Positions 19,379-37,120 of a DNA stretch of 64,000 nt are shown here, one piece after another (positions within the stretch are counted from its first letter, which is position 1; each line of letters opens with the position of its first letter). Position numbers and translations under genes: made by a program. The notes beneath the pieces were generated by a model. The model was not told where the DNA came from. It saw only the letters and a list, made by a program, of their open reading frames with translations, and ran no database searches. This stretch comes from an uncultured Gammaproteobacteria bacterium. Lineage in GTDB: Bacteria; Patescibacteriota; Microgenomatia; Daviesbacterales; UBA10151. The DNA lies in the NCBI GenBank assembly GCA_964392925.1, contig CAYMRP010000007.1, positions 2,214 through 66,213 on the forward strand. The letters are read 5' to 3'.

Positions 19379-19762
19379 ATGCAGTGTCAATTTATAAAAG
19401 AAGATGAGAGTCAATGTGGAGCTATGTCTATTAAAGAGGCAACATTTTGCTTTAGTCATAATCCCGATACTCAACAAGAGAAACAGTTAGCGGTCCAGAA
19501 AGGAGGTTTTGCCAGTAAAAAAACTGATATAAACCTAATGCCGGTTGATATTAAAACTCCTCAACAGGTGACGGCTCTGCTCGAAGATACTATTAATAGA
19601 GTAAGGAGTGGGGAAGTGCCTCCAAATATTGCAAATACGATTGGCTATTTAGCCGGTCACATGCTCAAAGCTCTTGAAGTTTCAAATGTTGATGAGCGGG
19701 TAGAAATGATTGAAAGCATTTTATTAGAGCGTAAAACCTCAATTAAGGGGAGGCAAAGGTGA
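19379..19762 (+). CDS. Hypothetical protein
   Basis: 127-aa ORF; overlaps the next gene by 4 nt. Confidence 0.4.
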   Translation: MQCQFIKEDESQCGAMSIKEATFCFSHNPDTQQEKQLAVQKGGFASKKTDINLMPVDIKTPQQVTALLEDTINRVRSGEVPPNIANTIGYLAGHMLKALEVSNVDERVEMIESILLERKTSIKGRQR

Positions 19763-21333: not shown

Positions 21334-21354
21334 CCCTACCACTCTACTCACTAT
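21333..21354 (+). repeat. 22-nt direct repeat copy A (ACCCTACCACTCTACTCACTAT) with a promoter-like downstream half
   Basis: 21/22 identity to copy B at 30681-30702. The downstream similarity extends about 25 nt, through AGCTTGATATACT in copy A and AGCTAGTATAAT in copy B. A -10-like TATACT (21371-21376) ends 6 nt before the ATG at 21383. Confidence 0.6.
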
Positions 21355-21382: not shown

Positions 21383-21958
21383 ATGTACGCATTTATTGGA
21401 GGGACTCCATCTGCTGGGAAATCATATATAGCTAAAAAGTTTATTAAAGAATCAGGTTTACCTATTGAGTGTGTTGAAATTGATTCATTTAGAAAGAATT
21501 TTGCAAAGAATCCGGAGTTAGATAAGTGGGTTAAGGTTTTTTCTAGTAAAGATGAACTGAAATATTGGAATGAAATTACGCCTGAGGAACATATAAAGAA
21601 TTTAATTTCTCAATCAGAGGCATTTTGGCCGGAGATTATTAAGATAATTAATGAGGTTAAGGATAACTCTGAGCATGCAATATTTGAAGCCGTCAATCTG
21701 CTCCCTTATCTAGTACATAAAGATTTTGATTTTCCTGGCTTTTTCTTGGTGGAAGAAGACATGGAAACCTTACTGAGAAGACTAAATTCCAATCCTAAAT
21801 GGGGTGAAACTCCTGAAAAGCAACAACTGGAGGCCAAGTTTTTTATTGAATGGGAGGCAAGATATATAAGAGATGAAGCTGAAAAGTATAATTACCCAGT
21901 TTTTAACAATGAAGCTGAAGCACTAAAGCTGCTTCATAAAATATTTAACAAAACATGA
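21383..21958 (+). CDS. P-loop NTPase/kinase-like protein
   Basis: 191 aa; N-terminal Walker A FIGGTPSAGKSYIAKKF. Confidence 0.5.
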   Translation: MYAFIGGTPSAGKSYIAKKFIKESGLPIECVEIDSFRKNFAKNPELDKWVKVFSSKDELKYWNEITPEEHIKNLISQSEAFWPEIIKIINEVKDNSEHAIFEAVNLLPYLVHKDFDFPGFFLVEEDMETLLRRLNSNPKWGETPEKQQLEAKFFIEWEARYIRDEAEKYNYPVFNNEAEALKLLHKIFNKT

Positions 21959-22815
21959 CAAATGATCACATTATCAAATTAAGGGACAGAAGAAGGCTAG
22001 GTTATTCGGAATATGGCGATCCAAAAGGGAAACCAATTTTTTACTTTCATGGTTGGCCAGTTTCAAGATTAAGTGCAAAGATTACAGATGAAGCTGCTAA
22101 GAAACTACATATTAGGATAATTGCTCCTGATAGACCGGGTTATGGGTTATCCGATCTTAAGAAGAACCGGACTTTACTTGAATTTCCAGATGATATTGTT
22201 GAACTGGCTGACCAATTAGGAATTAAAAAGTTTGCAGTGATGGGTCAATCAGGAGGCGGACCATATGCTGCAGTTTGTGCTTATAAAATTCCCGATAGAT
22301 TAACAAATATAGGAATAGTCGTTGGACTAGCTCCTACCTATATTTCCGGACTACTGGATGGAATTACATGGATTGCTAAAATTGGCTGGGCTAATTATCA
22401 CAGAATGGCTTTCTTAAGATTCATGGGGGCTTATCTTCATTACTTCAGAACTAGATACTTTCCTTCTTTTGGGTTACATAGATTTATGTTTGGAGCAAAA
22501 GCAGATAAAGCAATTTATGCTGATGCTAAAGTAAGGAATGAAGTTAAGAAAAGTTATCAGGAAGCGTTTAGACAAGGCTACAAAGGAGTTGAAAAAGATT
22601 TAGATCTCTACACAAAAGATTGGGGTTTTAAATTAAGTGATATTAAAGCTAAAGTTTATCTTTTTTACGGAGAAGATGACAAAAATGTTTCACTTAAAAT
22701 GGGACAGTATTATGCGGACCAAATTAAAGGCAGTAAATTGATTACTTATCCAGGTGAAGGTCATTTAGTGTCCAGAACTCATGTTGAGGAGATATTAAAA
22801 ACACTCATAACATAA
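21955..22815 (+). CDS. Alpha/beta-hydrolase fold protein
   Basis: 286 aa; oxyanion-hole HGWP motif (FYFHGWPVS); nucleophile elbow GQSGGG (G-x-S-x-G); C-terminal EGHLV supplying the His. Confidence 0.7.
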   Translation: MTNDHIIKLRDRRRLGYSEYGDPKGKPIFYFHGWPVSRLSAKITDEAAKKLHIRIIAPDRPGYGLSDLKKNRTLLEFPDDIVELADQLGIKKFAVMGQSGGGPYAAVCAYKIPDRLTNIGIVVGLAPTYISGLLDGITWIAKIGWANYHRMAFLRFMGAYLHYFRTRYFPSFGLHRFMFGAKADKAIYADAKVRNEVKKSYQEAFRQGYKGVEKDLDLYTKDWGFKLSDIKAKVYLFYGEDDKNVSLKMGQYYADQIKGSKLITYPGEGHLVSRTHVEEILKTLIT

Positions 22816-22819
22816 ATAT

Positions 22820-23344
22820 ATGAAACAAATTCAATACATCCTTGTTGGTTTACCATTTTCAGGTAAGACAACCTTGTCTAAAGCGATTGCCGAACAGTTA
22901 AATATTCCCAGAGTAAATCTTGATGAGGTTAAGGAAGAAATGGGTTTTAAGGGAGTGAGTGACAATGACATTTCCCACGAAGACTGGACAAAAATATTTA
23001 ATGAAACGGACAGAAGAGTTGTTGAGCATCTTAAAAAAGGTCAAAGTGTTCTGCATGAAACCTCTTGGACTAAAAGATGGAAAAGAGATAGAGCTAGAAA
23101 ACTTGCCTCAGATTCAGGGATTACTTCTAAAGTCATTTATATAAAAATCCCAGAAACAGTTTCTAGAGAAAGATGGATGGATAATAAGAAAGAAAACGAG
23201 AGATATGATGTTCCAGAAGATGTATTTGAGGAAGCGGTTAAGGAATTTGAAATACCAACTGAAGATGAAGATTTATTAATTTATGATCAATCTGTGCCAG
23301 TAAACGATTGGATTATGGAGAATTTGTTAAATGAACACCGATAA
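22820..23344 (+). CDS. P-loop kinase (AAA_33/zeta-toxin-like/polynucleotide-kinase-like)
   Basis: 174 aa; Walker A ILVGLPFSGKTTLSKAIAEQL at the N-terminus. Confidence 0.55.
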   Translation: MKQIQYILVGLPFSGKTTLSKAIAEQLNIPRVNLDEVKEEMGFKGVSDNDISHEDWTKIFNETDRRVVEHLKKGQSVLHETSWTKRWKRDRARKLASDSGITSKVIYIKIPETVSRERWMDNKKENERYDVPEDVFEEAVKEFEIPTEDEDLLIYDQSVPVNDWIMENLLNEHR

Positions 23345-23555
23345 ATTTCTTAAACAATTTGGCGATTCAACTGATATTTTTCGGCATATTGAGAGATTGT
23401 CACCAGCCTCTTTTCATTGAGGTACTTTTTTCGTCAGAATTCATGTTATTAATATAGACTGATGCTCAGAATTATCAATCATCTTTTGATGTTGCGTTGA
23501 AAATGCCTATATTATTACTTATACTTATGATAGATAGATTGATATAAGGATAAAA

Positions 23556-26500
23556 ATGGATATGACGCAAGAAAGACGAGAGCAACCACGTTCTCCTAAT
23601 GGGGAGACATTAAACGCACCACTTCCAGAGCTTAAAATCTCTCAAGTTCTTAAATCACCTGAGCCTGTCATAAAATCAAATGAGCGTGGTTTAATTCAAC
23701 CGGTTGGTGAATATACAGCGGTTTTGGGCAGGGAGGCAAAAGAAATAACGGTTTTGGATAAAGTAGGTAGAAAAGTGGAAGGATTAAATAATACACAAAC
23801 AATGATTCTGGATTGGCCGACTCTGACGAGCAAGGGTGGTTATGGTTCGTATGCTTACATAGCTATTGATCCCAACAAATTAAATTACGATAAAAGAGCC
23901 TATTCAATTGGCGTTAATAAATTCCCTGCTCATCTGCAACCTGTGGTAACAGAGTACATTAAACAAAAAGGACAGGCAGATTCTGTTGATACTCCAAACC
24001 AAGCATGGAATTTGCCAACTTCGGATGTTAAATCTTTAAAAGTGAAATCGGGAGATGGGTATATTCTTTTTTATCAAGAAAAAGCTAGTGGCTCTTGGAT
24101 AGGATTCCAAACTCAGGATGAACGCGGACTTGATCTTCCTCCCAGGAATTGGAAGAGATTTGATCTTGCTGACGAGTGGGCTGGAAGATGGCCTCAGACT
24201 ATTGCTGCTGAAATTCGAAATTTGAGAATTCCAGACTTAACCTCCATTGATAGAACCGAAAAGGGCGATTATGTTTTAGCATTAAAAGATAGCTTAGTGG
24301 TTTCTAAACCAGGTAAAAAAATTTCTGAAGCTGATTTTAAAGACCAGTTAGTTGGAATTGGTAATAATATATGCAAAGATCCCAAAAATAAAAACGTTGT
24401 TTATTACTGCACAACTGATAACCCTCGATTGTTAATAAAGCTGGATACAACCAACGATCCGAGCACTTGGGTAACTGAAACTGTGGATATACCACAAGCA
24501 TATATAAATATCAGGAATTTGCAATTAGATCCGACCGGTAATTTTTTTATGTTCAACTCGGGCATTGATTTTGTAATTTTGGCTAAAGACACTTTGCAAG
24601 AGGTGCAGAAAATTCCTAAACTTTCTGATGGTAAGCTAGATGACCAAGGAAGAATTCGGGGATTTGATGAGAGGGGGCATTTGGTGATTTATGATGCAAA
24701 TTTTCAAGAAGTATCTCAAGAACTAGAAAAACGAAGAGTTGCAAGATTAGCTCAGGGAATTACAGTTGACCTTTTCAAAAAAGAATCAGCAACTGCCACA
24801 AAAATTGAAACTGATCAATTGCAGCATCTAGTTCCTGTTAAAACTAATTTAGAAACCCAGTTTAATACTCAGCTTCAACAGATCACAGCTCTTGATGATA
24901 TGTCAATAGTTGGCGAGGCACTAACCAAATTACGAACACGTCTTAAGTCGGAGGGATTACAACCTGCACAAATAGACTTTATAACTCAAGGAATACAAGA
25001 TTCCATTGCAGGGAAAGAGAGAATTCTGGCGGCTCCAATTGTTGCACAAGGATTAACCGAGCTTCATACAAAACTTGGTGGTAACTTAACTGTTACATCT
25101 ATTACGGAAGCAAGGGGAGATTTGGCCAAGCTCAAATCTTTAGAGGGTCTTGTTGATGATGCAACTAGAATTCAGATTCGGGCATTGGAAAATCAGTTTG
25201 GTCAGCAATCTGCTGAGTTGTTCCGGAGAGAGGGTTCAGTTATTGAAAAGGATGTTGGTGAGCTCGTAACCGGAGTGAAGGCTGAATTAGAAAAGATGGC
25301 GACGATTGGTGATTTTGCGGACTGGCAAGAGTTTCGATTACCTCAATTAGTAAGCAGACTTGGAGCTTTGGCAAATGATTGTCCTATTGAAGCCTCTGAA
25401 ACTCAGAGGAAAATTTTGACTGCAAGGAGGCAACTGCAAGAGATTTCCAGAGAGAATGAGAAAAAATTTAAAGAGCATTATTCAGAGGTTAGGGAAAAGG
25501 CATCGGAAGTGATGGGCGAACGGGTTGAGTTAATGAAGGTTGATATAGATTCCTTTACAGACAGATTAAGAGGAAGGGGCTTTAAGGATCGTGCACAAGC
25601 TGAGTCTTACGCCAGATCAAGCGAGGCTCTGGAAGCACTAAGGACTGAAATTGAGGAATTAAAGAGGCAAAATCCAGATGCGGCGAAGGAGCTGGATAAG
25701 GTTTTGAAGGTGCAATTAGCCACAGTAATGGCTGAGATAGAACGGGGTGGGCTAACTACTGTAGCTGAGACCGGGCAACAAATGATTTTATTTGGTGATA
25801 CTCTTTTTCCAAAATGGGAGGGAAAAGTTCAGGAAAAAGTGCAACGTCAGGTGGATCTGATATTTATACCTGACGAAAGAACTAAGGGACCGGGTGTGAC
25901 AGCGGATAAGGTTTTAGGAGATATAGGAATTATTGAGATTAATTCCAGAGGAAAATTAGAAAAGCAAAGATTGTATGAGGGAATGCAGGATGAGGATGAG
26001 TGGCGTTATGGTTCTGTATCTTACAGGGGAGAATATGTTTTTCCATCTTATCTAACGCAAGCAGAGTACCGAAAGCTCAAGCAGGAATATGCTGATTGGA
26101 ATAAAGGTGACGGATCAAAATTAAAACAGGAGCTCAATGAAAAAAGAGGGGCACTAAAGGATTGGTATAAACAAAGACAAAAACCTGGCGAAAGAGACCC
26201 TCATAATGATGATCAATGGGGTGGGAAATACAGAGAGTTATTACAAGATTACGCAACCTTTTCTGCTGAGCATCATATTTTACTTTTAACTCGTATTGAC
26301 CAGATGCGTAATGCTCCGGAAACTGAATTTGCTAATGGATCGGGCTATGTTCCTGAATGGCAAAGCCACTGGACTGTAGATGAGGACACAGAAGGTTATT
26401 TGGAAGGAATGGCTCAAGCCTCAAAAATGCAGCTGGACTTACAGGAAGGGTTATTGAATCTTAAAGGTCATGCAGGCACAGGAAAGGATGTTTTAGTTAA

Positions 26501-27428
26501 GATGTTTTGTAATCGATCCAACAGACCATATTTTGCAATAGATTGTTCAAAATGGACAACTGAGTTTGAGCTTTCAGAGGATGTGGTGCTGGAAGCAGAA
26601 GATGGGGCTTCTAAAACAGTTAAAGTTCCATCAATTGTACTTAATGCTATTACAACTCCCGGTGCTGTCATGTACTTTAATGAAATTAATGCAATGCCTG
26701 AACAAGCCCAGATTTTCTTGCATGGTTTAACTGATGAGAAACGTACCCTGACCTTAAAAACCAGTTCAGGAAAGTCCATTAGATCAGATAAGACTGTTAT
26801 TTTAATGGGGTCAATGAATCCCGGATATCCTGGAACATTCAATCCGCAATTTGCTACTAAAAGTAGGATGGTAGGTTTGGAAATTGATTATCCAAAATTA
26901 TATAGAGAAAGAGATCCTAATGATCCTAATCCAAATCCTCCATTAAGTGCAGCTGAGGCTTTAAGAGTTGCCAGGCAGGTTGATTCATTAGCGGATCTTA
27001 CTTATGAGGCAAATCCACAGCACAACGATTTTGTAAAAATTTGGGACAGGCATGTTAATGGAATTCAAAATGGAGCTCCTGATTTGACCCAAACACAGAG
27101 ATTTGATGTGGAAGCCATTTTAACGATGGTGGAATTTGCTCAAAAACTAAGAGAGGGGTTTATTTTGAAGTTTGAAAAAGCAAGGGCATCTGCAATTCCT
27201 AGAGGAACACTTTTAGTGGATCAGCCAATTACCGGAAGAGAAATGAGAAGAATGGCATATTTCTTAAGTAAAATGTCAGCCGAGGAGAAAGCCACAGCTA
27301 ACCCGGAAGCAGTTGTTAGAAATTTGATTGAAAGATTCTTCCTCTCACATATTGATAAAAAAGATGAAAAGGATGATATAAGGACCGCTATGGCAACTTG
27401 GACTTCCTCCAAAAGACCGGCAGCCTAA
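23556..27428 (+). CDS. Giant protein with a C-terminal MoxR/CbbQ/NorQ-like AAA+ (AAA_5) domain carrying substituted Walker motifs
   Basis: 1290 aa. The C-terminal roughly 330 aa read GHAGTGKD (Walker A-like, but Asp replaces Ser/Thr), VMYFNEINAMPEQAQIFLHGLTDE (aligns to MoxR LLLDEINRAPPEVQSALLEAMEE with D to N), and VILMGSMNP...RMVGLEIDYP (the MoxR ATQNP...DRF..V.YP region). The N-terminal roughly 950 aa match nothing I recognise. Confidence 0.65.
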   Translation: MDMTQERREQPRSPNGETLNAPLPELKISQVLKSPEPVIKSNERGLIQPVGEYTAVLGREAKEITVLDKVGRKVEGLNNTQTMILDWPTLTSKGGYGSYAYIAIDPNKLNYDKRAYSIGVNKFPAHLQPVVTEYIKQKGQADSVDTPNQAWNLPTSDVKSLKVKSGDGYILFYQEKASGSWIGFQTQDERGLDLPPRNWKRFDLADEWAGRWPQTIAAEIRNLRIPDLTSIDRTEKGDYVLALKDSLVVSKPGKKISEADFKDQLVGIGNNICKDPKNKNVVYYCTTDNPRLLIKLDTTNDPSTWVTETVDIPQAYINIRNLQLDPTGNFFMFNSGIDFVILAKDTLQEVQKIPKLSDGKLDDQGRIRGFDERGHLVIYDANFQEVSQELEKRRVARLAQGITVDLFKKESATATKIETDQLQHLVPVKTNLETQFNTQLQQITALDDMSIVGEALTKLRTRLKSEGLQPAQIDFITQGIQDSIAGKERILAAPIVAQGLTELHTKLGGNLTVTSITEARGDLAKLKSLEGLVDDATRIQIRALENQFGQQSAELFRREGSVIEKDVGELVTGVKAELEKMATIGDFADWQEFRLPQLVSRLGALANDCPIEASETQRKILTARRQLQEISRENEKKFKEHYSEVREKASEVMGERVELMKVDIDSFTDRLRGRGFKDRAQAESYARSSEALEALRTEIEELKRQNPDAAKELDKVLKVQLATVMAEIERGGLTTVAETGQQMILFGDTLFPKWEGKVQEKVQRQVDLIFIPDERTKGPGVTADKVLGDIGIIEINSRGKLEKQRLYEGMQDEDEWRYGSVSYRGEYVFPSYLTQAEYRKLKQEYADWNKGDGSKLKQELNEKRGALKDWYKQRQKPGERDPHNDDQWGGKYRELLQDYATFSAEHHILLLTRIDQMRNAPETEFANGSGYVPEWQSHWTVDEDTEGYLEGMAQASKMQLDLQEGLLNLKGHAGTGKDVLVKMFCNRSNRPYFAIDCSKWTTEFELSEDVVLEAEDGASKTVKVPSIVLNAITTPGAVMYFNEINAMPEQAQIFLHGLTDEKRTLTLKTSSGKSIRSDKTVILMGSMNPGYPGTFNPQFATKSRMVGLEIDYPKLYRERDPNDPNPNPPLSAAEALRVARQVDSLADLTYEANPQHNDFVKIWDRHVNGIQNGAPDLTQTQRFDVEAILTMVEFAQKLREGFILKFEKARASAIPRGTLLVDQPITGREMRRMAYFLSKMSAEEKATANPEAVVRNLIERFFLSHIDKKDEKDDIRTAMATWTSSKRPAA

Positions 27429-27446
27429 GTTGAATGTATATATGAT

Positions 27447-30400
27447 ATGGACAGAGAAAGAGGAGAATTACCCCGACAACCTTTACAAAGAGATAATCTT
27501 GCCAGAGAAAAAATCTTTCTTGCTGAACAGGCTTCTGAAGGTGGTTTAAAAGTCGTCCCTGGAAAAAGTTGGGCATTTCATTATCCTAATGGTGCTGAGG
27601 CACGATCTGCTGCAATTTCAGGGTTACTTAAGGGAAGAGTTAAGCCAGATGAAGTAACTGGGGATTTAAAGCCGGACGCTTTTACTTACGATGTTGCTGA
27701 TCTGGAAACTCAAGGTTTACCTTCTGTATCAGGAAGAGTTAGAGATGTCTCCTCTTATGTGACCCACTACGATTATCCCCGCTTTGCTCAATTTGTTTCT
27801 GAAATGCAAGGAACGGGAATGGAAGCTGATACTGCTCAGTCCCTTTATGATGGTATTGCTCAAAGCAGAATTCGTAAGAAAATGATTGATTCTTATGGGT
27901 ATACAGGGAGAAAGCAAATGGAAGATGCGTTAAAGTTGGAAGCTGAGAGGACTGCTCAGCAAATTGGAGGTCTTCCAAAAGTGGAAAAGGTTTTGGCAGC
28001 TTTAAAAATGAATTGGCTTGCAGAGGATCTTCAGCTTGCAAGAACTGAACAGAGAGATCAGGCAGTAGGACAATTATCTGCTGATGAACGTGAACTATAC
28101 GACCAATTGAAGGATTCTTACCAGGGTTATGTAAGGAAGGGTGATCAAGGGGATTACGAAAAATTAGTAAAGGGGGTCAAAGAAAATATCCCTAGAATTC
28201 AGCAAGCGCAACAGGAGCCTCAAACGGATGAAAGTCAGGAAAAACTTGAACAGGAACTTGAGCAATATAAGGATAAAGTAGAGCCTCCGGGAATGCCGGG
28301 TGATCCTGCCATCCCGCCGGAAGATTCTGATGAATACCATACCCCTCCAGTTATGCCAGGAGAATCAAAGGAACAGGCTTCCCAAAGACCGATTTTTGAA
28401 ATAACTCCAAGTGGGTCAAGCACTAATCCTTTGACAGGCTATTATGCTTCTGGAAGAAAAAGTTACTATGATGTAGATAGAAAAACGTGGAGTAAAAGAA
28501 AACAATTATCTTCTTATAATTCAACTTTGTTTGGCTCCGAGAGGCAAACAATATCTGGGACTACGACTGCAGGTCTAAAATCAATTCCTATTCCAAATGG
28601 ATATGGGTTGGATATGGCTTCGCTCAAGTTTAATGGAGCCCGACCGGAGATTTTACGAGATCAAAATGGTTGCTTCTATATTAAGACTGATGGCAGTAAC
28701 TCATTCTCAGTTGATTTCTTAAAGCAGGATACTCCTTTCGCCGGTCCTCCAGTTGCAGATGACATTATCCCAATTCATCGGGGTCAGCTTTCTCCTGAAA
28801 CTGAACAGAGGATGTTTAGTTTAGCTGGGGGAACACTAGATAAAGCTGAACAATTACGCCAATATCTGCTTTCTAAGCATTTCTATCCTGGCGATGGAGA
28901 TTTAGAAATGGCTCAATCTCTACAACTCAAATTAAGATCGGAATCAACAGGTGATAATTATATTCAAAATCTTGATCAGTCTGAATATTTGGAATGTTAC
29001 TCTGCTAACACACTTTATCTTGCAATGTTAAGGAAAACAGGCATTCCAGCAAGGTTAGTTATTGGACATAAAGTTGAAGGTGCAAAAGATGGTAAGGCTG
29101 CAATTGATGCTACAACTGGGCATGCATGGACTGAAGTTTGGGACGGAGTTGCCTGGAGAAGAATGGATGCTACACCAAGTCCAAAACAGCAGAAAAAAGA
29201 TCAGGGGAAAGACCAAAATTCTCCCACACAGGAAGCTCAAGATGGAGGGATTGAGAGGCAAGATCAAGGGCAACAGCAACAGGGCGAGGGGCAACCACAA
29301 CAGGGCGAGGGGCAACCACAACAGGGACAGCCACAAGATGGACAACAAGGTCAACCTCAACAAGGTGAATCGCAGCAAGGTGAGCCTCAACAAGGTGGTC
29401 CTGGTCAGCCTGGCGAATCAATGCCCGGTTCGCAAATGGGTGAAGCATCAGACCAAGATATTTCTCAGGGAGAGTCGCAATTAGATAATGCAAAACAATT
29501 TTCTCAACAACAAGAGCAACAAAAGCGTTCTATGGATCAACAGCTACAAGATACTAAGTCGTTTGAAGACCTGAAGAAGTTAGAGCAACAAGCTGAAAAA
29601 TCTGATTTATTTGATGATATGAAAGAAGACTTACAGCAAAAGATGGAAGCTAAAGAGGAGCAAATGAAAGAATCAATGAAGGAGAACTTAGATCAAATGG
29701 TTCAAGATGGATTTCTGGATGAAGATCGTAGGCAAGAACTAGAGCAGCAACTTGATAAGAATAAATTGGAAGATTTGGATCGTATTAGACAGCAAATTGA
29801 GCGTGAGAGCAGATTGTTTAACGAGTATCAGGAGATTAAAGAAGATGTTGCTCCCTTAGTTGATCAATGGTTTGACTATTTTGTAGAAAGATTACCTCGT
29901 CAGGATGAAGTGGAGCTTGATGAAGATTCCTTAACTCGTCAGGGGGCATTTAACAGGCACTCAGTTATGAGACCGAGAAATTTACTTTTTGGTACGGTCA
30001 AAAACCCCCGTGTAATCAAACCATCCATTAAACCTAAGTTCCTAGCTTCTATTATGGTTGATGTTAGTGGCTCAATGGCTGGGGAAAAATTAAATATGGC
30101 AAGAAAACAGTTAGTTTTTTACAACGAACTATTTTCCAGAATTAGTGAAGAATTCGGCTTTATAAGATATGCTAACAATATTTTTTCAGATACTGTAGTC
30201 GAACTGAAATCATACGATCAGGAGTATGATAGCCCGACACGATACGATTGGAGTGATGGTTCAAAATCAACAATTAAAGCTCGTCTCATGCAAGCTGTTC
30301 GTACTCAAGGGGGAACTAATATGTTGCCAGCGATTCAAAAAGCAGCAGCGGATTTAAATAAGGAGACCTTTGAATACCCTGACTATGCTTCTTCATTTTA

Positions 30401-30662
30401 TTTTATTGGTGATGGTCAGGACACCTCAGGAAATTCTCAAAAAGTGAAAGAGTTTTTACAATTGACTGAATCTGAGCGTGGATTTGGAGAACACATGTTA
30501 TCGGCAATTATGCTTGGTGATGAATCACAAAGGAAAGAACTGGCAGCAATTTTTGGAGATGAACACACAACAGTTGCACCTAACTTTGATGATTTAATTG
30601 AACAAAGTATGTATAAATTTGATGAAGATATCGAGGTTTATTTAGCAGATAAAACAATTTGA
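27447..30662 (+). CDS. Giant protein with a transglutaminase-like core, a Gln-rich tandem repeat and a C-terminal von Willebrand factor A domain
   Basis: 1071 aa. TGase-like core: ECYSANTLYLAMLRKTGIPARLVIGH ... GHAWTEVWDGVAWRRMDATP (Cys/His/Asp). Repeat: QQQGEGQPQQGEGQPQQGQPQDGQQGQPQQGESQQGEPQQG. VWA MIDAS motif: MVDVSGSMAGEKL ... GGTNM. Confidence 0.65.
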   Translation: MDRERGELPRQPLQRDNLAREKIFLAEQASEGGLKVVPGKSWAFHYPNGAEARSAAISGLLKGRVKPDEVTGDLKPDAFTYDVADLETQGLPSVSGRVRDVSSYVTHYDYPRFAQFVSEMQGTGMEADTAQSLYDGIAQSRIRKKMIDSYGYTGRKQMEDALKLEAERTAQQIGGLPKVEKVLAALKMNWLAEDLQLARTEQRDQAVGQLSADERELYDQLKDSYQGYVRKGDQGDYEKLVKGVKENIPRIQQAQQEPQTDESQEKLEQELEQYKDKVEPPGMPGDPAIPPEDSDEYHTPPVMPGESKEQASQRPIFEITPSGSSTNPLTGYYASGRKSYYDVDRKTWSKRKQLSSYNSTLFGSERQTISGTTTAGLKSIPIPNGYGLDMASLKFNGARPEILRDQNGCFYIKTDGSNSFSVDFLKQDTPFAGPPVADDIIPIHRGQLSPETEQRMFSLAGGTLDKAEQLRQYLLSKHFYPGDGDLEMAQSLQLKLRSESTGDNYIQNLDQSEYLECYSANTLYLAMLRKTGIPARLVIGHKVEGAKDGKAAIDATTGHAWTEVWDGVAWRRMDATPSPKQQKKDQGKDQNSPTQEAQDGGIERQDQGQQQQGEGQPQQGEGQPQQGQPQDGQQGQPQQGESQQGEPQQGGPGQPGESMPGSQMGEASDQDISQGESQLDNAKQFSQQQEQQKRSMDQQLQDTKSFEDLKKLEQQAEKSDLFDDMKEDLQQKMEAKEEQMKESMKENLDQMVQDGFLDEDRRQELEQQLDKNKLEDLDRIRQQIERESRLFNEYQEIKEDVAPLVDQWFDYFVERLPRQDEVELDEDSLTRQGAFNRHSVMRPRNLLFGTVKNPRVIKPSIKPKFLASIMVDVSGSMAGEKLNMARKQLVFYNELFSRISEEFGFIRYANNIFSDTVVELKSYDQEYDSPTRYDWSDGSKSTIKARLMQAVRTQGGTNMLPAIQKAAADLNKETFEYPDYASSFYFIGDGQDTSGNSQKVKEFLQLTESERGFGEHMLSAIMLGDESQRKELAAIFGDEHTTVAPNFDDLIEQSMYKFDEDIEVYLADKTI

Positions 30663-30680
30663 TTAATTAATTCTTAGATT

Positions 30681-30702
30681 ACCCTACCTCTCTACTCACT
30701 AT
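30681..30702 (+). repeat. 22-nt direct repeat copy B (ACCCTACCTCTCTACTCACTAT) with a downstream TATAAT
   Basis: Partner of 21333-21354; TATAAT at 30717-30722, 17 nt after the repeat end; ATG of the next gene at 30740. Confidence 0.6.
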
Positions 30703-30739
30703 ATTTTCAAAGCTAGTATAATCAGCTGATTAAATAAAT

Positions 30740-31957
30740 ATGAGTATAAAAATTAAAAAGAGTGATCTGCAACCTTCCTTTAGGCAAAAAGATCTAATGA
30801 CAAAAAGTAACTTTATAAGTTACTGCTATCAATATGGGGTAAGAACCGGGGATAGTGAATTGGAATTTTTAGAAAAGAAAGGTTTATTTTTTCCGGCGGT
30901 TAGAGTTTATAGAGAGGCTGTTGAGATGCGGGAAATATATGCAACATTTGATGGTGAAAAGCAATGGAGATTGGTCCCACGACATTATGTTGATGTTGAT
31001 CCGATACCTTTTGATGAAGTGAAGCCGGACGTTTTTTATATTTTTGATTCTCTTCATCTAGGTGCTCATAATTGGCTTGATCCTTATAAGGTGCGGGGTA
31101 TGGTGGAATACCCTGCTAATAGGAAATTTAAGGCTTGGAATGAGCGGATTAATAATTCCGTTGCAATAGCTAAAGAAGCGGATGACTTAGGAAGTGCATT
31201 TGAAACATTTTATGGGAAGAATCAGCTTTATGCACTTAAGTTCTTACAAAGTCGATTAACTTTAGAAATTAGAGATGCGGGATTGTTTAGAACTCCTGAA
31301 GAATGGGTTAAATTGGGGGAATCAGTAACAAAAATGTTTACGACAGAAGTAACCAATAAATTTCTTAAAGAGACGATGCTTAATTATAATAAATTTTTTG
31401 CTTTTGTGGATGATTTAGCAAGGCTTTGGGATGAAAGAACAGTTGAGTTGGATATTGAGTTTTCAAGGATGAAAAAGGTACTTGAGAAACCAGAAGAATC
31501 CGATTTGAATCCAACTGATATTGTGGAGGCGGAAAATAGGGTGGATGAATCACTCAAAGCCAAAGCTGCAGAATTATTAAAAAGGCATACTATCCCAATG
31601 AATGAGCTAGATAATTGGCGGGTTACACTTTTGAGCTACGGTACTTTTGGTATACGGTTTAGATCAATAAGTCAGAAACCTTACTTGAACAAATTAAATG
31701 ATGAGGATCTGGCTAAATCAGAAGATCCCTATAAGATTGTGCATCAATTAAATTGGTTAATTGTAATTAATGGGGGACAGAAACTGACAATTAAGGAGCT
31801 TTTAATACGCTCGGGTTCATATCAAACCTGTAAGTATTGTGAGCGGGAATATAAACCAAAAAGGATTGATCAAACTAATTGCGGTTTACAGGATTGTCAA
31901 ATGAAGCATAAAAACGAACTCAAAAAAGAGAAACGCAAAGCAGGGATTTATAAGTAA
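30740..31957 (+). CDS. Hypothetical protein with a C-terminal Cys cluster (possible zinc ribbon)
   Basis: 405 aa; C-terminal CKYCEREYKPKRIDQTNCGLQDC followed by a basic tail. Confidence 0.45.
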   Translation: MSIKIKKSDLQPSFRQKDLMTKSNFISYCYQYGVRTGDSELEFLEKKGLFFPAVRVYREAVEMREIYATFDGEKQWRLVPRHYVDVDPIPFDEVKPDVFYIFDSLHLGAHNWLDPYKVRGMVEYPANRKFKAWNERINNSVAIAKEADDLGSAFETFYGKNQLYALKFLQSRLTLEIRDAGLFRTPEEWVKLGESVTKMFTTEVTNKFLKETMLNYNKFFAFVDDLARLWDERTVELDIEFSRMKKVLEKPEESDLNPTDIVEAENRVDESLKAKAAELLKRHTIPMNELDNWRVTLLSYGTFGIRFRSISQKPYLNKLNDEDLAKSEDPYKIVHQLNWLIVINGGQKLTIKELLIRSGSYQTCKYCEREYKPKRIDQTNCGLQDCQMKHKNELKKEKRKAGIYK

Positions 31958-32018
31958 CGGAACTCTTCCGGAACTTTCCATAAAGGCTGACTGGTTATTT
32001 TAATATTACCTTAGCTTT

Positions 32019-32291
32019 ATGGATAAAAATAAATATTCAGATAAATATTTCCGGTTAACAAACTTTTACCTAGCTGCCTTTCTATTTTCCAAAGGAATGG
32101 AATTGGTCAATATTGACCGTACCGATCCAAAACGCTCTGAGTTTGTATATTTAGATACCCCTGAAAGAGAACAATTAGTACAGAACTTTAATTTCGCTTC
32201 AGAAGACTCCCCTGAATCATTGGTTGATGTCCGTAAGTTTGTAATGGCGATAAAAATGCTTAAAGACAAGCTGTATCAGGAAAGGTATTGA
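32019..32291 (+). CDS. Hypothetical small protein
   Basis: 90-aa ORF. Confidence 0.35.
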   Translation: MDKNKYSDKYFRLTNFYLAAFLFSKGMELVNIDRTDPKRSEFVYLDTPEREQLVQNFNFASEDSPESLVDVRKFVMAIKMLKDKLYQERY

Positions 32292-32295
32292 AGCG

Positions 32296-33789
32296 ATGGC
32301 AGACGATGAGTATAAAGATTTTGAAAAAAGATTTGAAGCAATACAGGAGCAGCAAAAGAAGCTGCGGTTGGATAAGTTGGAAAAAGAATTTCCACTTCCT
32401 GAGAGGGTTTTACATCTTCAACAGATTCATGCAGAAAAAGAAAAGGAAAAACTTAAGCAAGAATTAGAGCAGGTTGAGGAAGAGCCGCTAGTTGATGTAA
32501 CTCAATTTAAGCCCCTATCCGCGAGTGAGCTATTAAAAACTTTAGGGCTAACTATTAAAAGGGATGAGATAAATAAGCTGATTACTTTTCTTGCTCAACT
32601 GTCAGCCTATACGGAGGATTCCCAGTTAAATATTAGTTTTAACGCGCCGTCAGCATCCGGTAAATCCTATATCCCAACAGAAATTGCCCGGTTATTTCCA
32701 AGTAAAGATGTAATTGAAGTTGCCTATTGTTCACCAACTGCTTTTTTCCATGATTACGGGGAGTTTGATAAAGAAAAAGGCGGTTATATTGTTAATCTTT
32801 CCAGAAAAATTATTATCTTTTTGGACCAACCTCATACACTTCTGCTTCAACATTTAAGACCATTATTGTCGCATGACAACAAAATTATAAGACTTAAGGT
32901 TACTGACAAGTCTCAGAAAAAAGGGCTTCAAACTAAAAATATCTTTTTAATAGGGTACCCAACAGTCATATTTTGCACAGCCGGTTTGAATCTGGACGAA
33001 CAGGAAGCCACCCGATTTTTGCTTTTATCACCTGAAATTAACCAGGAGAAAATTAGAGAAGCAATTTTTGAGAAGATTAGGAAAGAATCGGATTCTGCAA
33101 ATTACAGTCACGAACTAGAGTCCGACCCCGGCAGAATTTCACTAAAAGATAGGATCCTTGCTATTAAGCAGGAAAATATTAAGGAGATTAAAATTGGAAA
33201 TCCGGAACTTGTAAAAAAGTTATTCATTGAGAGAATTAAAATATTCAAACCAAGAAATCAGCGGGATATTGGCAGGGTTATTAGTCTTATCAAAGTTTTT
33301 GCACTGTTTAACTTATGGTTTAGGGAGCGGAATGGTTCTTTAATTAAGGCAAATGATGAAGACATAACAGAGGCTTTTAAAGTCTGGGACGCTATATCCG
33401 AAAGCCAGGAATTAAACTTACCTCCGTTTGTTTATAACCTTTACAAAGATGTTGTAATTGCAGCATACAAGGACAGAAATGGCGAAACTGAGGGAGCAGT
33501 CAAAATTGGTTTAACCCGGTCCGATTTAATGCAAAAGCATTATCAGGTATATGGTAGATTTTTGCCAGATTGGATGTGGAGACAGCAGATTATCCCGCAG
33601 CTAGAAACCGCCGGACTGATTTCCCAAGAGCCGGACCCCACTGATAAAAGAAGAATTTTAGTTTACCCTACTCCTTTACTCACAAATTCCAGAGAACAAA
33701 ACTATAGTGAGTCTGGTGGTGGGGTAGATAGTGAAAAGGCTTTAGAAGACTTAACTAGGGAAATTTTTGAAGTGGAGGAGTCTGAATGA
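32296..33789 (+). CDS. Hypothetical protein with a P-loop-like motif (possible replication/primase-associated ATPase)
   Basis: 497 aa; NISFNAPSASGKSYIPTEIARLF resembles a Walker A; a hydrophobic strand followed by D (IIIFLDQP) could be Walker B; coiled-coil N-terminus. Confidence 0.45.
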   Translation: MADDEYKDFEKRFEAIQEQQKKLRLDKLEKEFPLPERVLHLQQIHAEKEKEKLKQELEQVEEEPLVDVTQFKPLSASELLKTLGLTIKRDEINKLITFLAQLSAYTEDSQLNISFNAPSASGKSYIPTEIARLFPSKDVIEVAYCSPTAFFHDYGEFDKEKGGYIVNLSRKIIIFLDQPHTLLLQHLRPLLSHDNKIIRLKVTDKSQKKGLQTKNIFLIGYPTVIFCTAGLNLDEQEATRFLLLSPEINQEKIREAIFEKIRKESDSANYSHELESDPGRISLKDRILAIKQENIKEIKIGNPELVKKLFIERIKIFKPRNQRDIGRVISLIKVFALFNLWFRERNGSLIKANDEDITEAFKVWDAISESQELNLPPFVYNLYKDVVIAAYKDRNGETEGAVKIGLTRSDLMQKHYQVYGRFLPDWMWRQQIIPQLETAGLISQEPDPTDKRRILVYPTPLLTNSREQNYSESGGGVDSEKALEDLTREIFEVEESE

Positions 33790-33939
33790 GAAAAATTACT
33801 CCTCTAAAGTTCCAGTTTAATTATATAGATAATCCTGATAGTGAAAGTAAAGTTAAGAGTGCCTATAGGAGGATTTTTAATATAGCAAAGCAAAATATTT
33901 TAGAGAGAAGAAAAATAAAGAAGAAAGGAGGAGAAAAAC

Positions 33940-34206
33940 ATGTTACAGGAAATTACATTACACAATTATAAACAACTAAAAAGTTTAATAGATGACTATC
34001 AGTTCGTTGAAAAGCAGCCAATCAAAGCAAAGAAGGATTTTATTCTTTACAAGGTGTTTTGGGTAGATGAATTTGAACCCAAGGAGATTAAAGAAGCTGA
34101 AGTTCTGATTAAAGATTTTAGTGAAGGAGTTTTAAATATGATGTGTAGTGAACCCGGACTCATGAGTGATTTTAGGGAATATATCGAAGATCTTAACGAG
34201 AACTAA
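33940..34206 (+). CDS. Hypothetical small protein
   Basis: 88-aa ORF. The overlapping 61-aa ORF at 33786-33971 is an alternative that I did not call separately. Confidence 0.3.
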   Translation: MLQEITLHNYKQLKSLIDDYQFVEKQPIKAKKDFILYKVFWVDEFEPKEIKEAEVLIKDFSEGVLNMMCSEPGLMSDFREYIEDLNEN

Positions 34207-34217
34207 GAGTGAGATAG

Positions 34218-34448
34218 TTGACAATAATAGTACACAAAAGTACACTAAAGTTAGATATGGATAATACCCAAGAAGAGTATCTAACCCCTGAGCAAGTTGC
34301 TGAAAAACTCAAAGTTAAAAAGATAACCATTTATAGAATGGCAAGAACAGGAAAACTTCCGGCTATAAAATTTGGTAAAAGCTGGAGAATTAACAGTATT
34401 AAATTAGCAGAGTTTTTAGAAAAGGAATCAAATAAAAATGAACGATAA
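34218..34448 (+). CDS. Helix-turn-helix DNA-binding protein, excisionase/MerR-like (candidate recombination directionality factor)
   Basis: 76 aa; LTPEQVAEKLKVKKITIYRMARTGKLPAIKFGKSWRI is a typical excisionase-family HTH; lies immediately upstream of the recombinase and overlaps it. Confidence 0.6.
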   Translation: MTIIVHKSTLKLDMDNTQEEYLTPEQVAEKLKVKKITIYRMARTGKLPAIKFGKSWRINSIKLAEFLEKESNKNER

Positions 34449-36081
34449 TCAAACATCACAACCGCTAATAGCAGCTTTATACGCTCGTGTTTCCACCTCT
34501 AGGCAAGAGGAACAGGAGACTATTGGATCTCAGATTGAGGAGATTAAAGCAAGAATCCTAGCAGATGGGAATGTTTTACCAGCTGAAAACATCTTCCAAG
34601 ATGATGGTTGGACCGGCGAAATGTTACAAAGACCGGGACTGGATGCCATGCGAGATGCAGCTATGGCTGATGCTTTCAAAGTCTTATACGTTTATGACAG
34701 AGGTAGGCTTTCTAGGGTTTTTGCTTACCAAGAAATTATTCTTGAAGAAATAATCAATTTAGATATTAAGTTTGTTACTTTGCACGATGTAAAGGCTGAA
34801 ACTGCTGAGGAAAGAGTATTGCAGGCTATGCAGGGAGTATTTCATGAATATGAGAGGGTAAAGATTGCAGAAAGAATGAGGAGAGGAAAAATGTACAAGG
34901 CAAAAAACAATGTGCTTATTAATGGACACTCATTATATGGATGGAATTACATTAAAAAGACAGATACAAAACCGGCTCATTACACGATTAATGAGGAACA
35001 AGCTAGGGTAGTAAATATGATATTTGAATGGGTAGGTATTGAACAAATTTCTCTCAGAGAGGTCATTAAAAGACTCTATGATAAGGGTGTTAGCCCTAGA
35101 AAAGGTAAAAGTGAATTTTGGACAAAAGGTCCACTGGTTAGGTTATTAGGATGTGAATCTTATGTGACTGGGATTATCCATTACAACAAATCTGAAGCTA
35201 TAGTGGCTAAAAATCCTACAAAACACGATAAGTATAAAAAGGTAAAAAGAAGCAGTAGAAGAGAGAGACCAAGAGAGGATTGGCTGCCGTTTGAAGTCCC
35301 CATCATCTTAGAGGATAAAGAGCTTTTTAACAAAGTCCAGAGAATTTTAGACCACAATAAAAAATATGCTCGCAAGAATAAAAAATATAATTATTTACTC
35401 TCAGGATTAGTATTTTGTGAATGTGGTATTAGAAGAGCTGGTGATGGGGCAAACAGTCATGGACACCACTATTACCGTTGTGCTGAAAGGATTTATACCT
35501 TTCCAGCGAAGAATAAATGCACATCCCCCGGTGTTAATGCTGTTTTATTAGATGGTTTTACTTGGAAACACTTATCTGAATTCTTAACTAATCCACAGGA
35601 GCTGAGGAAACAAGCGGAAAAATACCTTAACTCCCAGAGAGATGATGTAATGCCTGCTCAAGAGTTGGTAAAGTTGGAATCTATAGTTCAGAAAATTGAG
35701 GAAGAAGAAAAAAGATATGCGAAGGCTTATGGTGCCGGGACTTTAGAATTTGAGCAGTATCTGGACTTAATGAAGGATGCCAAAAAGAGGAAAAATGTCC
35801 ATAAAGAACAGTTAAATTTATTGAGTCAAAAAGTTGTTCAAGATGATGTCAGCTCTATAGATGTTGATGAATTGTGTGAAGAGGCAACTAAGGTTTTAAA
35901 GAACATGGACCTGTCTAACAAAATTAAAGTGGTTAGGGATATAATAGACAAGATTATTATCAAAGAAAGGAGCAGTGTTGAAGTATGGGGACATTTACCT
36001 CTATTCAACCAAAAGTTGGGATATGGGACTGAGAGTAGGGATTGTTGGGTTGCCGAATGTGGGGAAATCTACGTTATTTAA
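34438..36081 (+). CDS. Large serine recombinase (resolvase/invertase N-terminal domain, recombinase domain and zinc ribbon)
   Basis: 547 aa; N-terminal ALYARVSTSRQEE with the catalytic Ser and LYVYDRGRLSR; C-terminal Cys cluster CECG...YYRCAER; coiled-coil tail. Confidence 0.8.
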   Translation: MNDNQTSQPLIAALYARVSTSRQEEQETIGSQIEEIKARILADGNVLPAENIFQDDGWTGEMLQRPGLDAMRDAAMADAFKVLYVYDRGRLSRVFAYQEIILEEIINLDIKFVTLHDVKAETAEERVLQAMQGVFHEYERVKIAERMRRGKMYKAKNNVLINGHSLYGWNYIKKTDTKPAHYTINEEQARVVNMIFEWVGIEQISLREVIKRLYDKGVSPRKGKSEFWTKGPLVRLLGCESYVTGIIHYNKSEAIVAKNPTKHDKYKKVKRSSRRERPREDWLPFEVPIILEDKELFNKVQRILDHNKKYARKNKKYNYLLSGLVFCECGIRRAGDGANSHGHHYYRCAERIYTFPAKNKCTSPGVNAVLLDGFTWKHLSEFLTNPQELRKQAEKYLNSQRDDVMPAQELVKLESIVQKIEEEEKRYAKAYGAGTLEFEQYLDLMKDAKKRKNVHKEQLNLLSQKVVQDDVSSIDVDELCEEATKVLKNMDLSNKIKVVRDIIDKIIIKERSSVEVWGHLPLFNQKLGYGTESRDCWVAECGEIYVI

Positions 36082-37120
36082 TAGTCTCTTGAAGAAGCGG
36101 GTGGCTTTGTCTGCGAATTATCCGTTTGCGACTATTGAGCCAAATACTGGGATTGTTGCAGTTCCTGATGAAAGGCTTTTGAAGCTTGCGGAAATTACAA
36201 AAGTAGAGGAGAAGATGGATTCTTTACCGCCGCTGGTTAATGCGACTGTTGAATTCGTTGATATTGCGGGGTTGGTTAAGGGGGCTTCAGAGGGAGCTGG
36301 TTTAGGGAATAAATTCTTGTCTCATATTCGCGAGGTTGACGCGATTATTCACGTACTTCGGGATTTTGAGGATTCTAATATTGTTCGTGAGGGTTCGGTG
36401 GATGCCTTATCTGATAGAGAAACAATTGAAACGGAACTTGCTTTAGCGGATATGCAGGTGATGGAGAAATTAATTGCCGGGCAGGAAAAGTTAGCGAGGA
36501 CAAATGGATCGGATCCGATTGAGAAACAAAAAATGGAGATTTTAAACTCAATAAATACGACACTTTCCGAAGGGAGAATGCTAGGAAAGTATGAGGTAGG
36601 GGATGAGAGATTGAAATTATGGTTTGAGACCTTGCCTTTATTAACTACGAAACCAGTACTGTATGTTTTTAATGTTGATGAAGGATCTTATGCGGGCAAG
36701 TTAGAACAGGTTGTTAATGATAACGAAATTTATATTTCGGCTAAGATCGAAGAGGAGTTGGTTGAATTATCAGATGAGGATAAAAATGAGTATTTGGCTG
36801 AACTTGGAATTAAAGAACCGGGACTTGAGAGATTAATTAAAAAGGCTTATTCACTATTAGGTCTGGCTTCGTTTTTGACTGCCGGGAAAAAAGAAGTTAA
36901 AGCCTGGACTTTTAAAACCGGAATGAAAGCTCCTGAGACCGCGGGAGTTATTCATACTGATTTTATTAAAAAATTTATCAGGGCTCAGGTGGTTTCTTAC
37001 GATCAATTAATGGAGGCAGGGAGTATGGCGATTGCGAAATCTAAGGGTTGGGTGAGAACTGAGGGTAAAGAATATGTAATGAAAGATGGAGATGTAGTTG
37101 AGTTTTTGATAGGTTCCTAG
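36023..37120 (+). CDS. ychF: Ribosome-binding ATPase YchF (Obg-family GTPase)
   Basis: MGLRVGIVGLPNVGKSTLFN (G1 motif), DIAGLVKGAS (G3), C-terminal TGS-like ...MKDGDVVEF. The six-frame ORF extends upstream to 35975, but the conserved N-terminus begins at the Met at 36023. Confidence 0.85.
   Translation: MGLRVGIVGLPNVGKSTLFNSLLKKRVALSANYPFATIEPNTGIVAVPDERLLKLAEITKVEEKMDSLPPLVNATVEFVDIAGLVKGASEGAGLGNKFLSHIREVDAIIHVLRDFEDSNIVREGSVDALSDRETIETELALADMQVMEKLIAGQEKLARTNGSDPIEKQKMEILNSINTTLSEGRMLGKYEVGDERLKLWFETLPLLTTKPVLYVFNVDEGSYAGKLEQVVNDNEIYISAKIEEELVELSDEDKNEYLAELGIKEPGLERLIKKAYSLLGLASFLTAGKKEVKAWTFKTGMKAPETAGVIHTDFIKKFIRAQVVSYDQLMEAGSMAIAKSKGWVRTEGKEYVMKDGDVVEFLIGS

Follow-up and report, generated by a model that had tools for sequence, protein, structure and literature searches.

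What is the gene of a large serine recombinase (LSR) doing across the start of ychF, and how much of the DNA around it arrived together with it? This question is raised by a 64,000-nucleotide (nt) stretch of contig CAYMRP010000007.1 (assembly GCA_964392925.1), hereafter the window, for which an earlier note, made from the letters alone, had proposed an element at 30703-36081 that is integrated at the 5' end of ychF and reconstitutes the start of that gene. We compared the window with related loci, proteins and attachment (att) sites. From these comparisons it is highly probable that positions 19188-36039 are a 16,852-bp integrative, probably self-replicating element, inserted by its LSR into codon 6 of ychF on a chromosome of the candidate phyla radiation (CPR; Microgenomates type), with the ychF start rebuilt by the element. 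Homologues of the LSR, the putative helicase and the YchF of the window come nearly all from Patescibacteria of the Microgenomates group (e.g. Daviesbacteria, Woesebacteria, Shapirobacteria), and it is from these homologues that we deduce the host lineage. To our knowledge, mobile elements of CPR bacteria or Patescibacteria are almost undescribed, and a full-text literature search returned nothing that links CPR to LSRs and nothing that mentions DUF5659, a domain type encoded next to the helicase gene of the element.

The recombinase gene and its overlap with ychF

The LSR gene (34438-36081, plus strand) encodes 547 amino acids (aa) in what we regard as the integrated-state isoform, with Resolvase, Recombinase and Zn_ribbon_recom domains. 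The catalytic domain matches PF00239 (2.5e-23, residues 12-158) and contains the motif YARVSTSRQ at residues 15-23, in which S19 and R17 are invariant across 25 homologues. The C-terminal domains match PF07508 (1.1e-11) and PF13408 (1.7e-6), and among the PHROGs the protein matches the integrase family phrog_95. Thus, as far as sequence can tell, the protein has the catalytic domain, the C-terminal domains and the att-site geometry (described below) of an LSR. A look-up of exact proteins returned no record for the LSR or for the 1071-aa protein encoded further upstream.

Directly 5' of the LSR gene, and overlapping it by 11 nt, lies the gene (34218-34448, plus strand) for a 76-aa excisionase-family helix-turn-helix (HTH) protein, which matches HTH_17 (4e-15), TIGR01764 'excise' (52.9 bits, cutoff 28.8) and several excisionase PHROGs. 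It is a candidate directionality factor or regulator and is conserved at this position in all elements, including two (L003 and L004) in which its coding sequence was overlooked by the gene caller and found by tblastn. Known directionality factors of LSRs are structurally diverse. The earlier note had described this pair of genes, and its coordinates and domains were confirmed on re-analysis, as was its observation that the LSR frame runs 59 nt into ychF: the LSR stop codon lies at 36079-36081 and the ychF ATG at 36023. The residues of the 547-aa protein that are encoded 3' of 36039 are ychF read in another frame.

Two elements converge inside one ychF gene

The right junction, attR, spans 36006..36071 on the plus strand and consists of a P arm (36006-36037, with AGTTGGGATA at 36014-36023), a central GG (36038-36039) and a B' arm of host ychF (36040-36071). 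Its origin becomes evident from a JGI contig (L001) that encodes a YchF protein identical to that of the window. From 36032 to at least 37200 the identity of the two DNAs is 100%, and left of 36031 it falls to 55-65%; the last mismatches (36028 and 36031) alter ychF codons 2 and 3 synonymously. The LSR of L001 differs from that of the window, its C-terminal half being 51% identical at the protein level. One host background therefore carries two different elements that converge inside ychF, which indicates that the ychF start and first codons come from the element and not from the host. The right arm of the element carries its own ATG and five ychF codons, so that an intact YchF (MGLRVG...) is rebuilt. 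In the window, ychF (36023..37120, plus strand; MMR_HSR1 and YchF-GTPase_C domains) is element-derived from codon 1 to the second base of codon 6 (36023-36039), and the remainder is host DNA.

A strong Shine-Dalgarno-like AAAGGAG (35966-35985) stands about 50 nt 5' of the ychF ATG and is kept in all elements. In-frame GTG and TTG codons occur 3' of it (open reading frame [ORF] 35975-37120), and YchF in occupied genomes might be translated with a 16-aa N-terminal extension. A promoter scan found fewer promoter-like sites than in shuffled sequence; being no better than chance, it says nothing on the transcription of ychF.

The native start of ychF is stranded at the left junction

The left junction was found by a protein-level route, in which the C-termini of 120 LSR homologues were compared and the tails were then used in tblastn. 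The LSR has 860 detectable homologues, of which the best 120 are 53-100% identical over the full length. Among these best 120, 116 end in ...KLGYEP.SR[DN][CS]W..., three are tailed and one is truncated. The ending of the 116 is the ychF 5' sequence in another frame, and these homologues are therefore integrated copies. The three tailed proteins (P0003, P0071 and P0090) have instead a conserved tail of about 45 aa, ...VPYLEFEFEFTPPKPRYTRIILQRDEYGRIVHSKSPTISK. When these tails were searched by tblastn, they matched the window at 19194-19322 (E=2e-10) and positions 159-281 of L002, a contig with a related element.

The matching region of the window is a detached 3' end of an LSR gene, consisting of a 48-aa tail (EAHSTIPTNSFHFKLSFTLPDPRKARLILERDVLGRIIHSKPPAMPLI) and a stop codon (19188..19334, plus strand), which would be in frame with 34438-36039 after excision. 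Fused to this 48-codon fragment on its 5' side is a stranded native start of ychF (19171..19187, plus strand; ATGTCATTAAAAGTAGG, i.e. ATG TCA TTA AAA GTA GG, MSLKV-G), 2 nt past the stop of a host gene for a 233-aa protein (18467-19168). The sequence at the junction is ...TTAATT ATG TCA TTA AAA GTA GGG A followed by AGCCC..., and the tail match is preceded by ATGTCATTAAAAGTAGGGA. The whole site, attL (19154..19219, plus strand), thus consists of a host B arm (19154-19185), a central GG (19186-19187) and a P' arm (19188-19219, with TATCCCAACT at 19202-19211), and is read as the ychF start into the tail. The same attL architecture is present in L002 (147-) and L086, and L002 also has the stranded start ahead of the tail. 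Between the window and L002, the detached tail differs by nine synonymous and six non-synonymous codons. Just past the tail stop codon there is a hairpin (19349..19369), which was the one match of a terminator scan here, as a minus-strand terminator-like site (19369..19349), and similar sequence occurs in L002.

The arrangement is widespread. A profile search with the tail found 31 small ORFs across Microgenomates, and most of the 23 that were retrieved are attL junctions, with host sequence from upstream of ychF fused to the tail. The closest relative without the full element (L091, 76% YchF identity) has a YchF that begins with MSSLKCG and, as in the window, a LysM/fn3 protein to the left. 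In the protein cluster P0263 (contigs up to 309 kb), an attL-type small ORF has a displaced YchF N-terminus (MSLFVGIV) in frame with a long-type LSR tail; judged from sequence, this implies a slightly different junction register in some members of the LSR family.

Crossover point and reconstructed attachment sites

The two ends of the element in the window share the 8-bp core AGTAGGGA (19182-19189 and 36034-36041), which is the short att-like duplication of the ychF 5' sequence that the earlier note had anticipated. The shared core is only 8 bp; exact and local-alignment searches of the window for such a duplication had given nothing convincing. The cores of L002, AGTTGGGA in attL and AGTAGGAA in attR, differ on both sides and share only the central GG, which pins the exchange to the GG dinucleotide, in keeping with the 2-bp stagger that a serine recombinase should produce. 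In the window, the crossover GG lies at 19186-19187 and 36038-36039, which delimits the element to 19188-36039 (16,852 bp) and places the insertion point in ychF codon 6. The GG crossover and the att arms are a comparative deduction from sequence.

When the host halves are joined, the reconstructed attB (junction …TTAATTATGTCATTAAAAGTAGGGATTGTTGGGTTGCCGAATG…) encodes MSLKVGIVGLPNVGKS, a perfect YchF N-terminus, and is barely symmetric (8/32). When the element halves are joined, the arms of the reconstructed attP (junction …GTTGGGATATGGGACTGAGAGTAGGGAAGCCCATTCTACTATCCCAAC…) match at 20 of 32 positions in register around GG (binomial P=1.6e-5), as against at most 14 matches at every other offset, and contain a perfect 10-nt inverted repeat made of AGTTGGGATA (36014-23) and TATCCCAACT (19202-11). 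The attP sites observed on L087 (15/32) and L090 (13/32) have the same geometry as that of the window.

Joining 34438-36039 to 19188-19334 gives the attP-form LSR gene, which is in frame over 1749 nt and encodes 582 aa with a single terminal stop. Because attP lies inside the LSR reading frame, the 547-aa protein is the truncated, integrated-state isoform of a 582-aa protein. Read from the sequence, integration swaps a 48-aa beta-strand tail of the LSR for 14 residues of out-of-frame ychF. The AlphaFold2 (AF2) model of the tailed homologue P0003 has the canonical LSR architecture with long helices (368-468) between the zinc-ribbon strands; after the LSR core it shows a low-confidence linker (524-539), encoded by attP, and then three short beta-strands.

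Occupied, unoccupied and attP-form sites in the family

The LSR gene overlaps the ychF start in all five relatives that were examined in context, namely L002 (84% LSR identity), L003 (66%), L004/L005 (65%) and L092. The module 5' of the LSR gene in those elements comprises a DUF5659-type small protein, an ATPase of 475-512 aa, one or two small ORFs and the HTH protein. Contigs in the attP form are known for relatives with 82% and 58-59% LSR identity: in L087 and L088, which carry P0003 (82%), and in L090, which carries P0071, the tail runs on into other element genes or sequence and not into ychF. The SIR2_2 domain is common in anti-phage defence. A protein with this domain is encoded directly after the LSR tail in L090 (2023-3012; ENA ERZ27247789), and defence genes may be among the left-end cargo of this element family.

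Unoccupied sites were found in related species. A contig scan with YchF returned mostly distant phyla and about a dozen useful Patescibacteria loci; in the 11 Patescibacteria ychF loci that we inspected, unrelated sequence lies 5' of the ATG. Likewise, in 80 ychF loci of GTDB species representatives, of which about a dozen are from Patescibacteria, the 10 kb 5' of ychF contain no LSR. The empty site for which the earlier note had advised a comparison with close relatives exists in related species, and none was found in the same species. Integration at the ychF 5' end with the element rebuilding the start, as the note had proposed, is now supported by the junction of L001, the stranded native start, the unoccupied relatives, the attP-form contigs and the mosaic cargo described below.

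Replication module, cargo and repeats

The module upstream of the recombinase genes includes a 497-aa protein (32296..33789, plus strand), which we tentatively assign from its homologues and an AF2 model to the MCM (minichromosome maintenance)-like AAA+ replicative helicases and call the type A replication protein. It has 1952 homologues, many with a fused N-terminal Toprim primase domain, and its Walker A motif is APSASGKS. There was no Pfam match and no sequence-level match to any chain in the Protein Data Bank (PDB). On the other hand, the top 16 PDB matches of its AF2 model (mean confidence, pLDDT, 75.5) in Foldseek are all MCM proteins, with E from 1.5e-7 to 3e-6 and a template modelling (TM) score of only about 0.4. 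In the model, the N-terminal region appears as a long helical segment with no MCM N-terminal domain. MCM-like or primase-helicase replication proteins are borne by prophages, e.g. the Bacillus cereus prophage MCM. The 497-aa protein resembles these in the AAA+ MCM-like fold and in homologues fused to primase-type Toprim domains, and departs from MCM proteins in the long helical N-terminal region, the TM score of about 0.4 and the lack of a PDB sequence match. We read it, on the model, as an MCM-like replicative helicase, and the element is therefore probably an integrative replicon.

The helicase gene is preceded by that of a 90-aa DUF5659 protein (32019..32291, plus strand), which is found 5' of the large ATPase gene, or at that position, in every related element examined; the 81-aa counterpart in L004 has no Pfam match and is tied only by BLASTP to the DUF5659 protein of L003. 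It is followed by two small conserved ORFs (33786..34206, plus strand) of 61 aa (33786-33971) and 88 aa (33940-34206), which are also conserved in related elements. Further upstream lies the gene of a 405-aa protein with a C-terminal Cys cluster and no family match (30740..31957, plus strand).

The modules are mosaic. The LSR and HTH proteins of the window are closest to those of L002, and its helicase type is common to L003 and L089 (63-73% identity); this type is not detectable by BLAST in L002 or L004, which share a second type. According to the earlier note, an overlap of recombinase and ychF conserved in all relatives with no variation in cargo would indicate a domesticated recombinase; the cargo proved to be mosaic between relatives. 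At the left end, the genes of a 127-aa (19379-19762) and a 524-aa (19759-21333) protein (19379..21333, plus strand) have no known domains and share 90% and 73% aa identity with the L002 element; a scan of metagenome contigs with the 524-aa protein found no relatives. The cargo block of 9.3 kb that follows (21383..30662, plus strand) encodes a DUF1186-like protein of 191 aa, an alpha/beta hydrolase of 286 aa, an AAA_33/zeta-toxin-like kinase of 174 aa, an AAA_5 (MoxR-like) protein of 1290 aa and a transglutaminase and VWA protein of 1071 aa. This block is absent from the L002 element, and of the 1071-aa gene the L092 element has the 3' part. PADLOC gave only weak sub-threshold matches on the cargo, nothing convincing, and Rfam found no families in 15-40 kb.

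The 22-nt repeat of the earlier note does exist, as two iteron-like motif copies on the plus strand, ACCCTACCACTCTACTCACTAT (21333..21354) and ACCCTACCTCTCTACTCACTAT (30681..30702), the second being 5' of a TATAAT box and the 405-aa gene. No match of this kind is expected by chance (0), and the direct copies flank the 9.3-kb cargo block. The motif recurs as an inverted pair at the 3' end of the helicase gene (33665-33686, plus strand; 33704-33725, minus strand), a candidate origin or binding site whose arms change together (ACTCAC in the window versus ACTCTCC in L003). In 1.5 Mb of fetched loci, the bipartite motif ACCC[TC]AC-N6-ACTC occurs only in elements with the same helicase type (three times in L003, at 5675, 9381 and 9441, and in L089) and in the same-strain contig L086. 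The intergenic region with the second copy is about 96% conserved in L092 and L093, versus 85-87% for the whole element. We infer that the copies (ACCCYAC-N6-ACTCAC) are putative iterons or operators tied to the type A replication module; with its inverted pair, the motif may be an origin, an iteron or an operator. Two other roles were considered for the repeat. As an att site or P' arm it was rejected, for it has no relation to the ychF junction and is internal and also found in the helicase gene; as a T7-type promoter-like sequence (ACTCACTATA) it was dropped because there is no phage-type RNA polymerase in the window.

Flanking chromosome

The flanks in the window are those of an ordinary bacterial chromosome, with rpsF, ssb, otsAB, a CtpB-like protease and HtrA at about 38% G+C; there are no tRNA genes in the window. 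The synteny of the right flank (ychF, rpsF, ssb, the CtpB-like protease and htrA) is deep across Microgenomates. About 12.5 kb of the window between ychF and rpsF (37174-49723) are absent from relatives, and four large proteins encoded there (552, 916, 824 and 613 aa) have in common a dockerin-like module of about 53 aa (DxDGNGKVDIFD repeated). At the equivalent position, L092 (7391-10817) encodes two cohesin-domain proteins. The presence of dockerin-like modules in the window and of cohesin proteins at the same position in L092 suggests a cohesin-dockerin surface system in these CPR bacteria.

Is the element still mobile?

Several observations weigh against a mobile element with the limits and mode of insertion given above. 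No empty site (attB) or circle (attP) of exactly this host and element was recovered, and none in the same species. The attP-form contig L087 has no terminal overlap that would indicate a circle. The attL sites of L003 and L004 were not found within the 10 kb fetched and lie outside that range. At the same site in L092 there is an element of this type with about 85% identity, which is about ychF's own divergence; this fits long vertical residence rather than recent movement, and the copy in the window may be long resident. In L089 (10001-11812; Logan SRR22387889), a family LSR that retains an intact long-type tail is encoded convergently to an ABC-F gene in a chromosomal-looking context away from ychF, and its putative P' arm is without the TCCCAAC motif; this LSR may use another target site or may be inactive. 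Finally, L091 (3863-5260; GCA_016307145.1, JADMIO011121733.1) has a solo attP-like site, GGTTGGGATATGAGCCTACGAGTA-GG-AACTCACACTACACAATCCCAAC, followed by an intact tail ORF and a gene for a 313-aa protein. There is no LSR in this region, which adjoins the 5' side of a ychF with a native-type start (MSSLKCG), and the site may be what is left of a decayed element, or may have arisen when tandem copies rearranged. A degenerate-pattern scan of metagenome contigs for attB, attP, attL and attR also gave no match; since it overlooked a known positive, the fitting JGI contig L001, its zero result carries no weight.

These observations raise the possibility that the insertion was fixed in an ancestor and domesticated, and is immobile now, the overlap being kept since ychF needs the start codon and transcription of the element. 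Such a history would agree with the LSR-ychF arrangement in every close LSR homologue examined, with the divergence of L092, with the missing empty site or circle for this species and with the loss of the native upstream gene and start of ychF. We nevertheless consider it unlikely. In the same strain background, L001 has a different LSR at the same junction. The detached tail ORF of the window is intact, its changes relative to L002 are mostly synonymous, and the tail is conserved at many attL sites; an intact and conserved tail would be expected only with regular rejoining of the tail to the LSR gene, which counts against a fixed insertion. Moreover, attP-form contigs of relatives exist, modules are shuffled between elements, and the catalytic motif and all LSR domains are intact.

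It is very improbable that the element is a prophage or an integrative conjugative or mobilizable element instead of a plasmid-like integrative replicon. Such an origin may be suspected from the matches of the LSR to phrog_95 and of the HTH protein to excisionase PHROGs, and many unannotated ORFs of the element could hide structural or transfer genes. On the other hand, searches of element ORFs with Pfam, PHROGs and NCBIfam (not every ORF against every library) gave no capsid, portal, terminase, tail, relaxase or type IV secretion domain, and there was no domain of coupling protein, relaxase or type IV secretion genes in the element ORFs by Pfam and NCBIfam. Scanned against IMG/VR, neither the LSR nor an LSR alignment found a relative. 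Both the helicase and a close relative of the LSR are absent from 50,697 phage and 72,556 plasmid records, in which the best match of the LSR, from Wolbachia phage WO, is 35% identical. A size of 16.9 kb and an MCM-like helicase fit an integrative replicon.

The limit of 30703 given in the earlier note, with the second 22-nt repeat acting as att site, is hardly tenable: the repeat does lie just 5' of the conserved replication and recombination module and has a direct partner at 21333, but it is unrelated to the ychF junction, its motif also forms the inverted pair in the helicase gene and occurs in L003 and L089 with the same helicase type, the 1071-aa gene to its left is conserved with the element in L092, in the window as in L002 the tail is separated from the remainder of the element by the 127-aa and 524-aa genes, and the stranded ychF start and LSR tail are at 19171-19334. 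The left end of the element is thus at 19188, its length is threefold what the note had proposed, and the repeat is internal to it.

Comparison with known systems

An integrative element whose recombinase gene contains attP has counterparts among tyrosine recombinases. The myxophage Mx8 is reported to have attP within int, so that integration turns IntP into IntX, and the int gene of SSV1 is said to be split by integration. In both, as in the window, integration changes or splits the recombinase; unlike the LSR of the window, both are tyrosine recombinases. In the mycobacteriophages BPs and Brujita (Broussard et al. 2013, reviewed in PMC9262239), attP lies inside the coding sequence of the repressor, and integration removes the C-terminus. 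They resemble the element of the window in that a different isoform is made when integrated, and in that the common core serves both recombination and reconstruction of the host gene. The differences are that BPs and Brujita use a tyrosine integrase, interrupt the repressor, lose an ssrA-like degradation tag and target a tRNA gene (PMC9262239), whereas the element uses a serine recombinase, interrupts that recombinase itself, loses a 48-aa beta-strand module without LAA-type end and targets the 5' end of a protein gene.

With regard to serine recombinases, the LSR of the window is like Listeria A118/U153 Int (comK), SPbeta SprA and skin SpoIVCA, integrases of phages and other elements whose targets are protein-coding genes, in its Resolvase, Recombinase and Zn ribbon domains with embedded coiled coil. 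It also shares with A118-type integrases the short att sites, the symmetric attP, the barely symmetric attB and the 2-bp non-palindromic crossover dinucleotide; the attB of A118 is barely symmetric, with a GG crossover (PMC3556126). Unlike these, it is only about 25% identical to A118/U153, its identity to the LSRs of deposited phages and plasmids does not exceed 35%, its target is rebuilt and not inactivated, attP is inside the integrase ORF, and the hosts are CPR bacteria.

The site itself is known in other phyla. LSR-encoding pipolins integrate at ychF in Actinobacteria (Mateo-Caceres et al., NAR 2024, PMC11551731), and like the element of the window they are LSR-borne, self-replicating, cargo-carrying integrative elements. 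Unlike pipolins, the element has an MCM-like helicase and no piPolB, there being no polymerase domain in any element ORF, and it belongs to a different phylum. The part of PMC11551731 on which we draw gives no description of attP inside the LSR gene for pipolins. In a defective pneumococcal prophage, ychF is directly 3' of int, and attB was mapped between a DUF951 gene and ychF (PMC8637289). As far as a limited literature search goes, ychF as an LSR target and an attP in a coding sequence that truncates the product are already known, such elements in CPR bacteria were not found described, and no LSR was described with its own C-terminal module exchanged by integration.

A possible switch of direction and its implications

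As the sequence comparison shows, recombination took place at the 2-bp GG within a short common core and left the native start (MSLKVG) at attL, 16.9 kb upstream. In the mechanism that we propose, attL x attR excision, which would restore the 582-aa LSR, is performed by the tail-less isoform, probably with the help of the neighbouring excisionase-type HTH protein. The tailed isoform would then be confined to the free element, and the reaction available there is attP x attB integration. The excised element may replicate as an episome via the MCM-like helicase and the iteron-like ACCCYAC-N6-ACTCAC sites, and the expression of ychF in the occupied state would rely on transcription out of the element. 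The tail is joined to the LSR only on the excised element, yet it is conserved; this implies that excision is frequent enough for selection and that the tail works in the free, integration-competent state.

These considerations allow a more tentative idea, namely that the C-terminus swap on integration is a directionality switch. On this hypothesis of a directional difference between the two isoforms, the 582-aa tailed form would favour or license attP x attB, and the 547-aa form, whether or not the small HTH protein takes part, would be tuned for attL x attR. Drawn from gene structure, this is possible but somewhat doubtful. If true, the structure of the recombinase gene would itself tell the element whether it is integrated, and the directionality of an LSR would not rest only on a separate recombination directionality factor. 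The switch would then apparently be conserved across hundreds of CPR elements.

For the LSR family with its 860 detectable homologues, attB, attP and the crossover are now defined to the base pair. The single conserved chromosomal site, used by 5/5 family members examined in context, offers a natural landing pad and integrase for lineages without genetic tools, and the family of ychF-site elements is a marker for strain-level variation in small genomes. For the field of recombinases, it is a natural case of integration rewriting the C-terminus of the enzyme itself, in which directionality can be tested. For the host, it means that a universally conserved GTPase/ATPase gene hands its start codon, and probably its transcription, to a mobile element.

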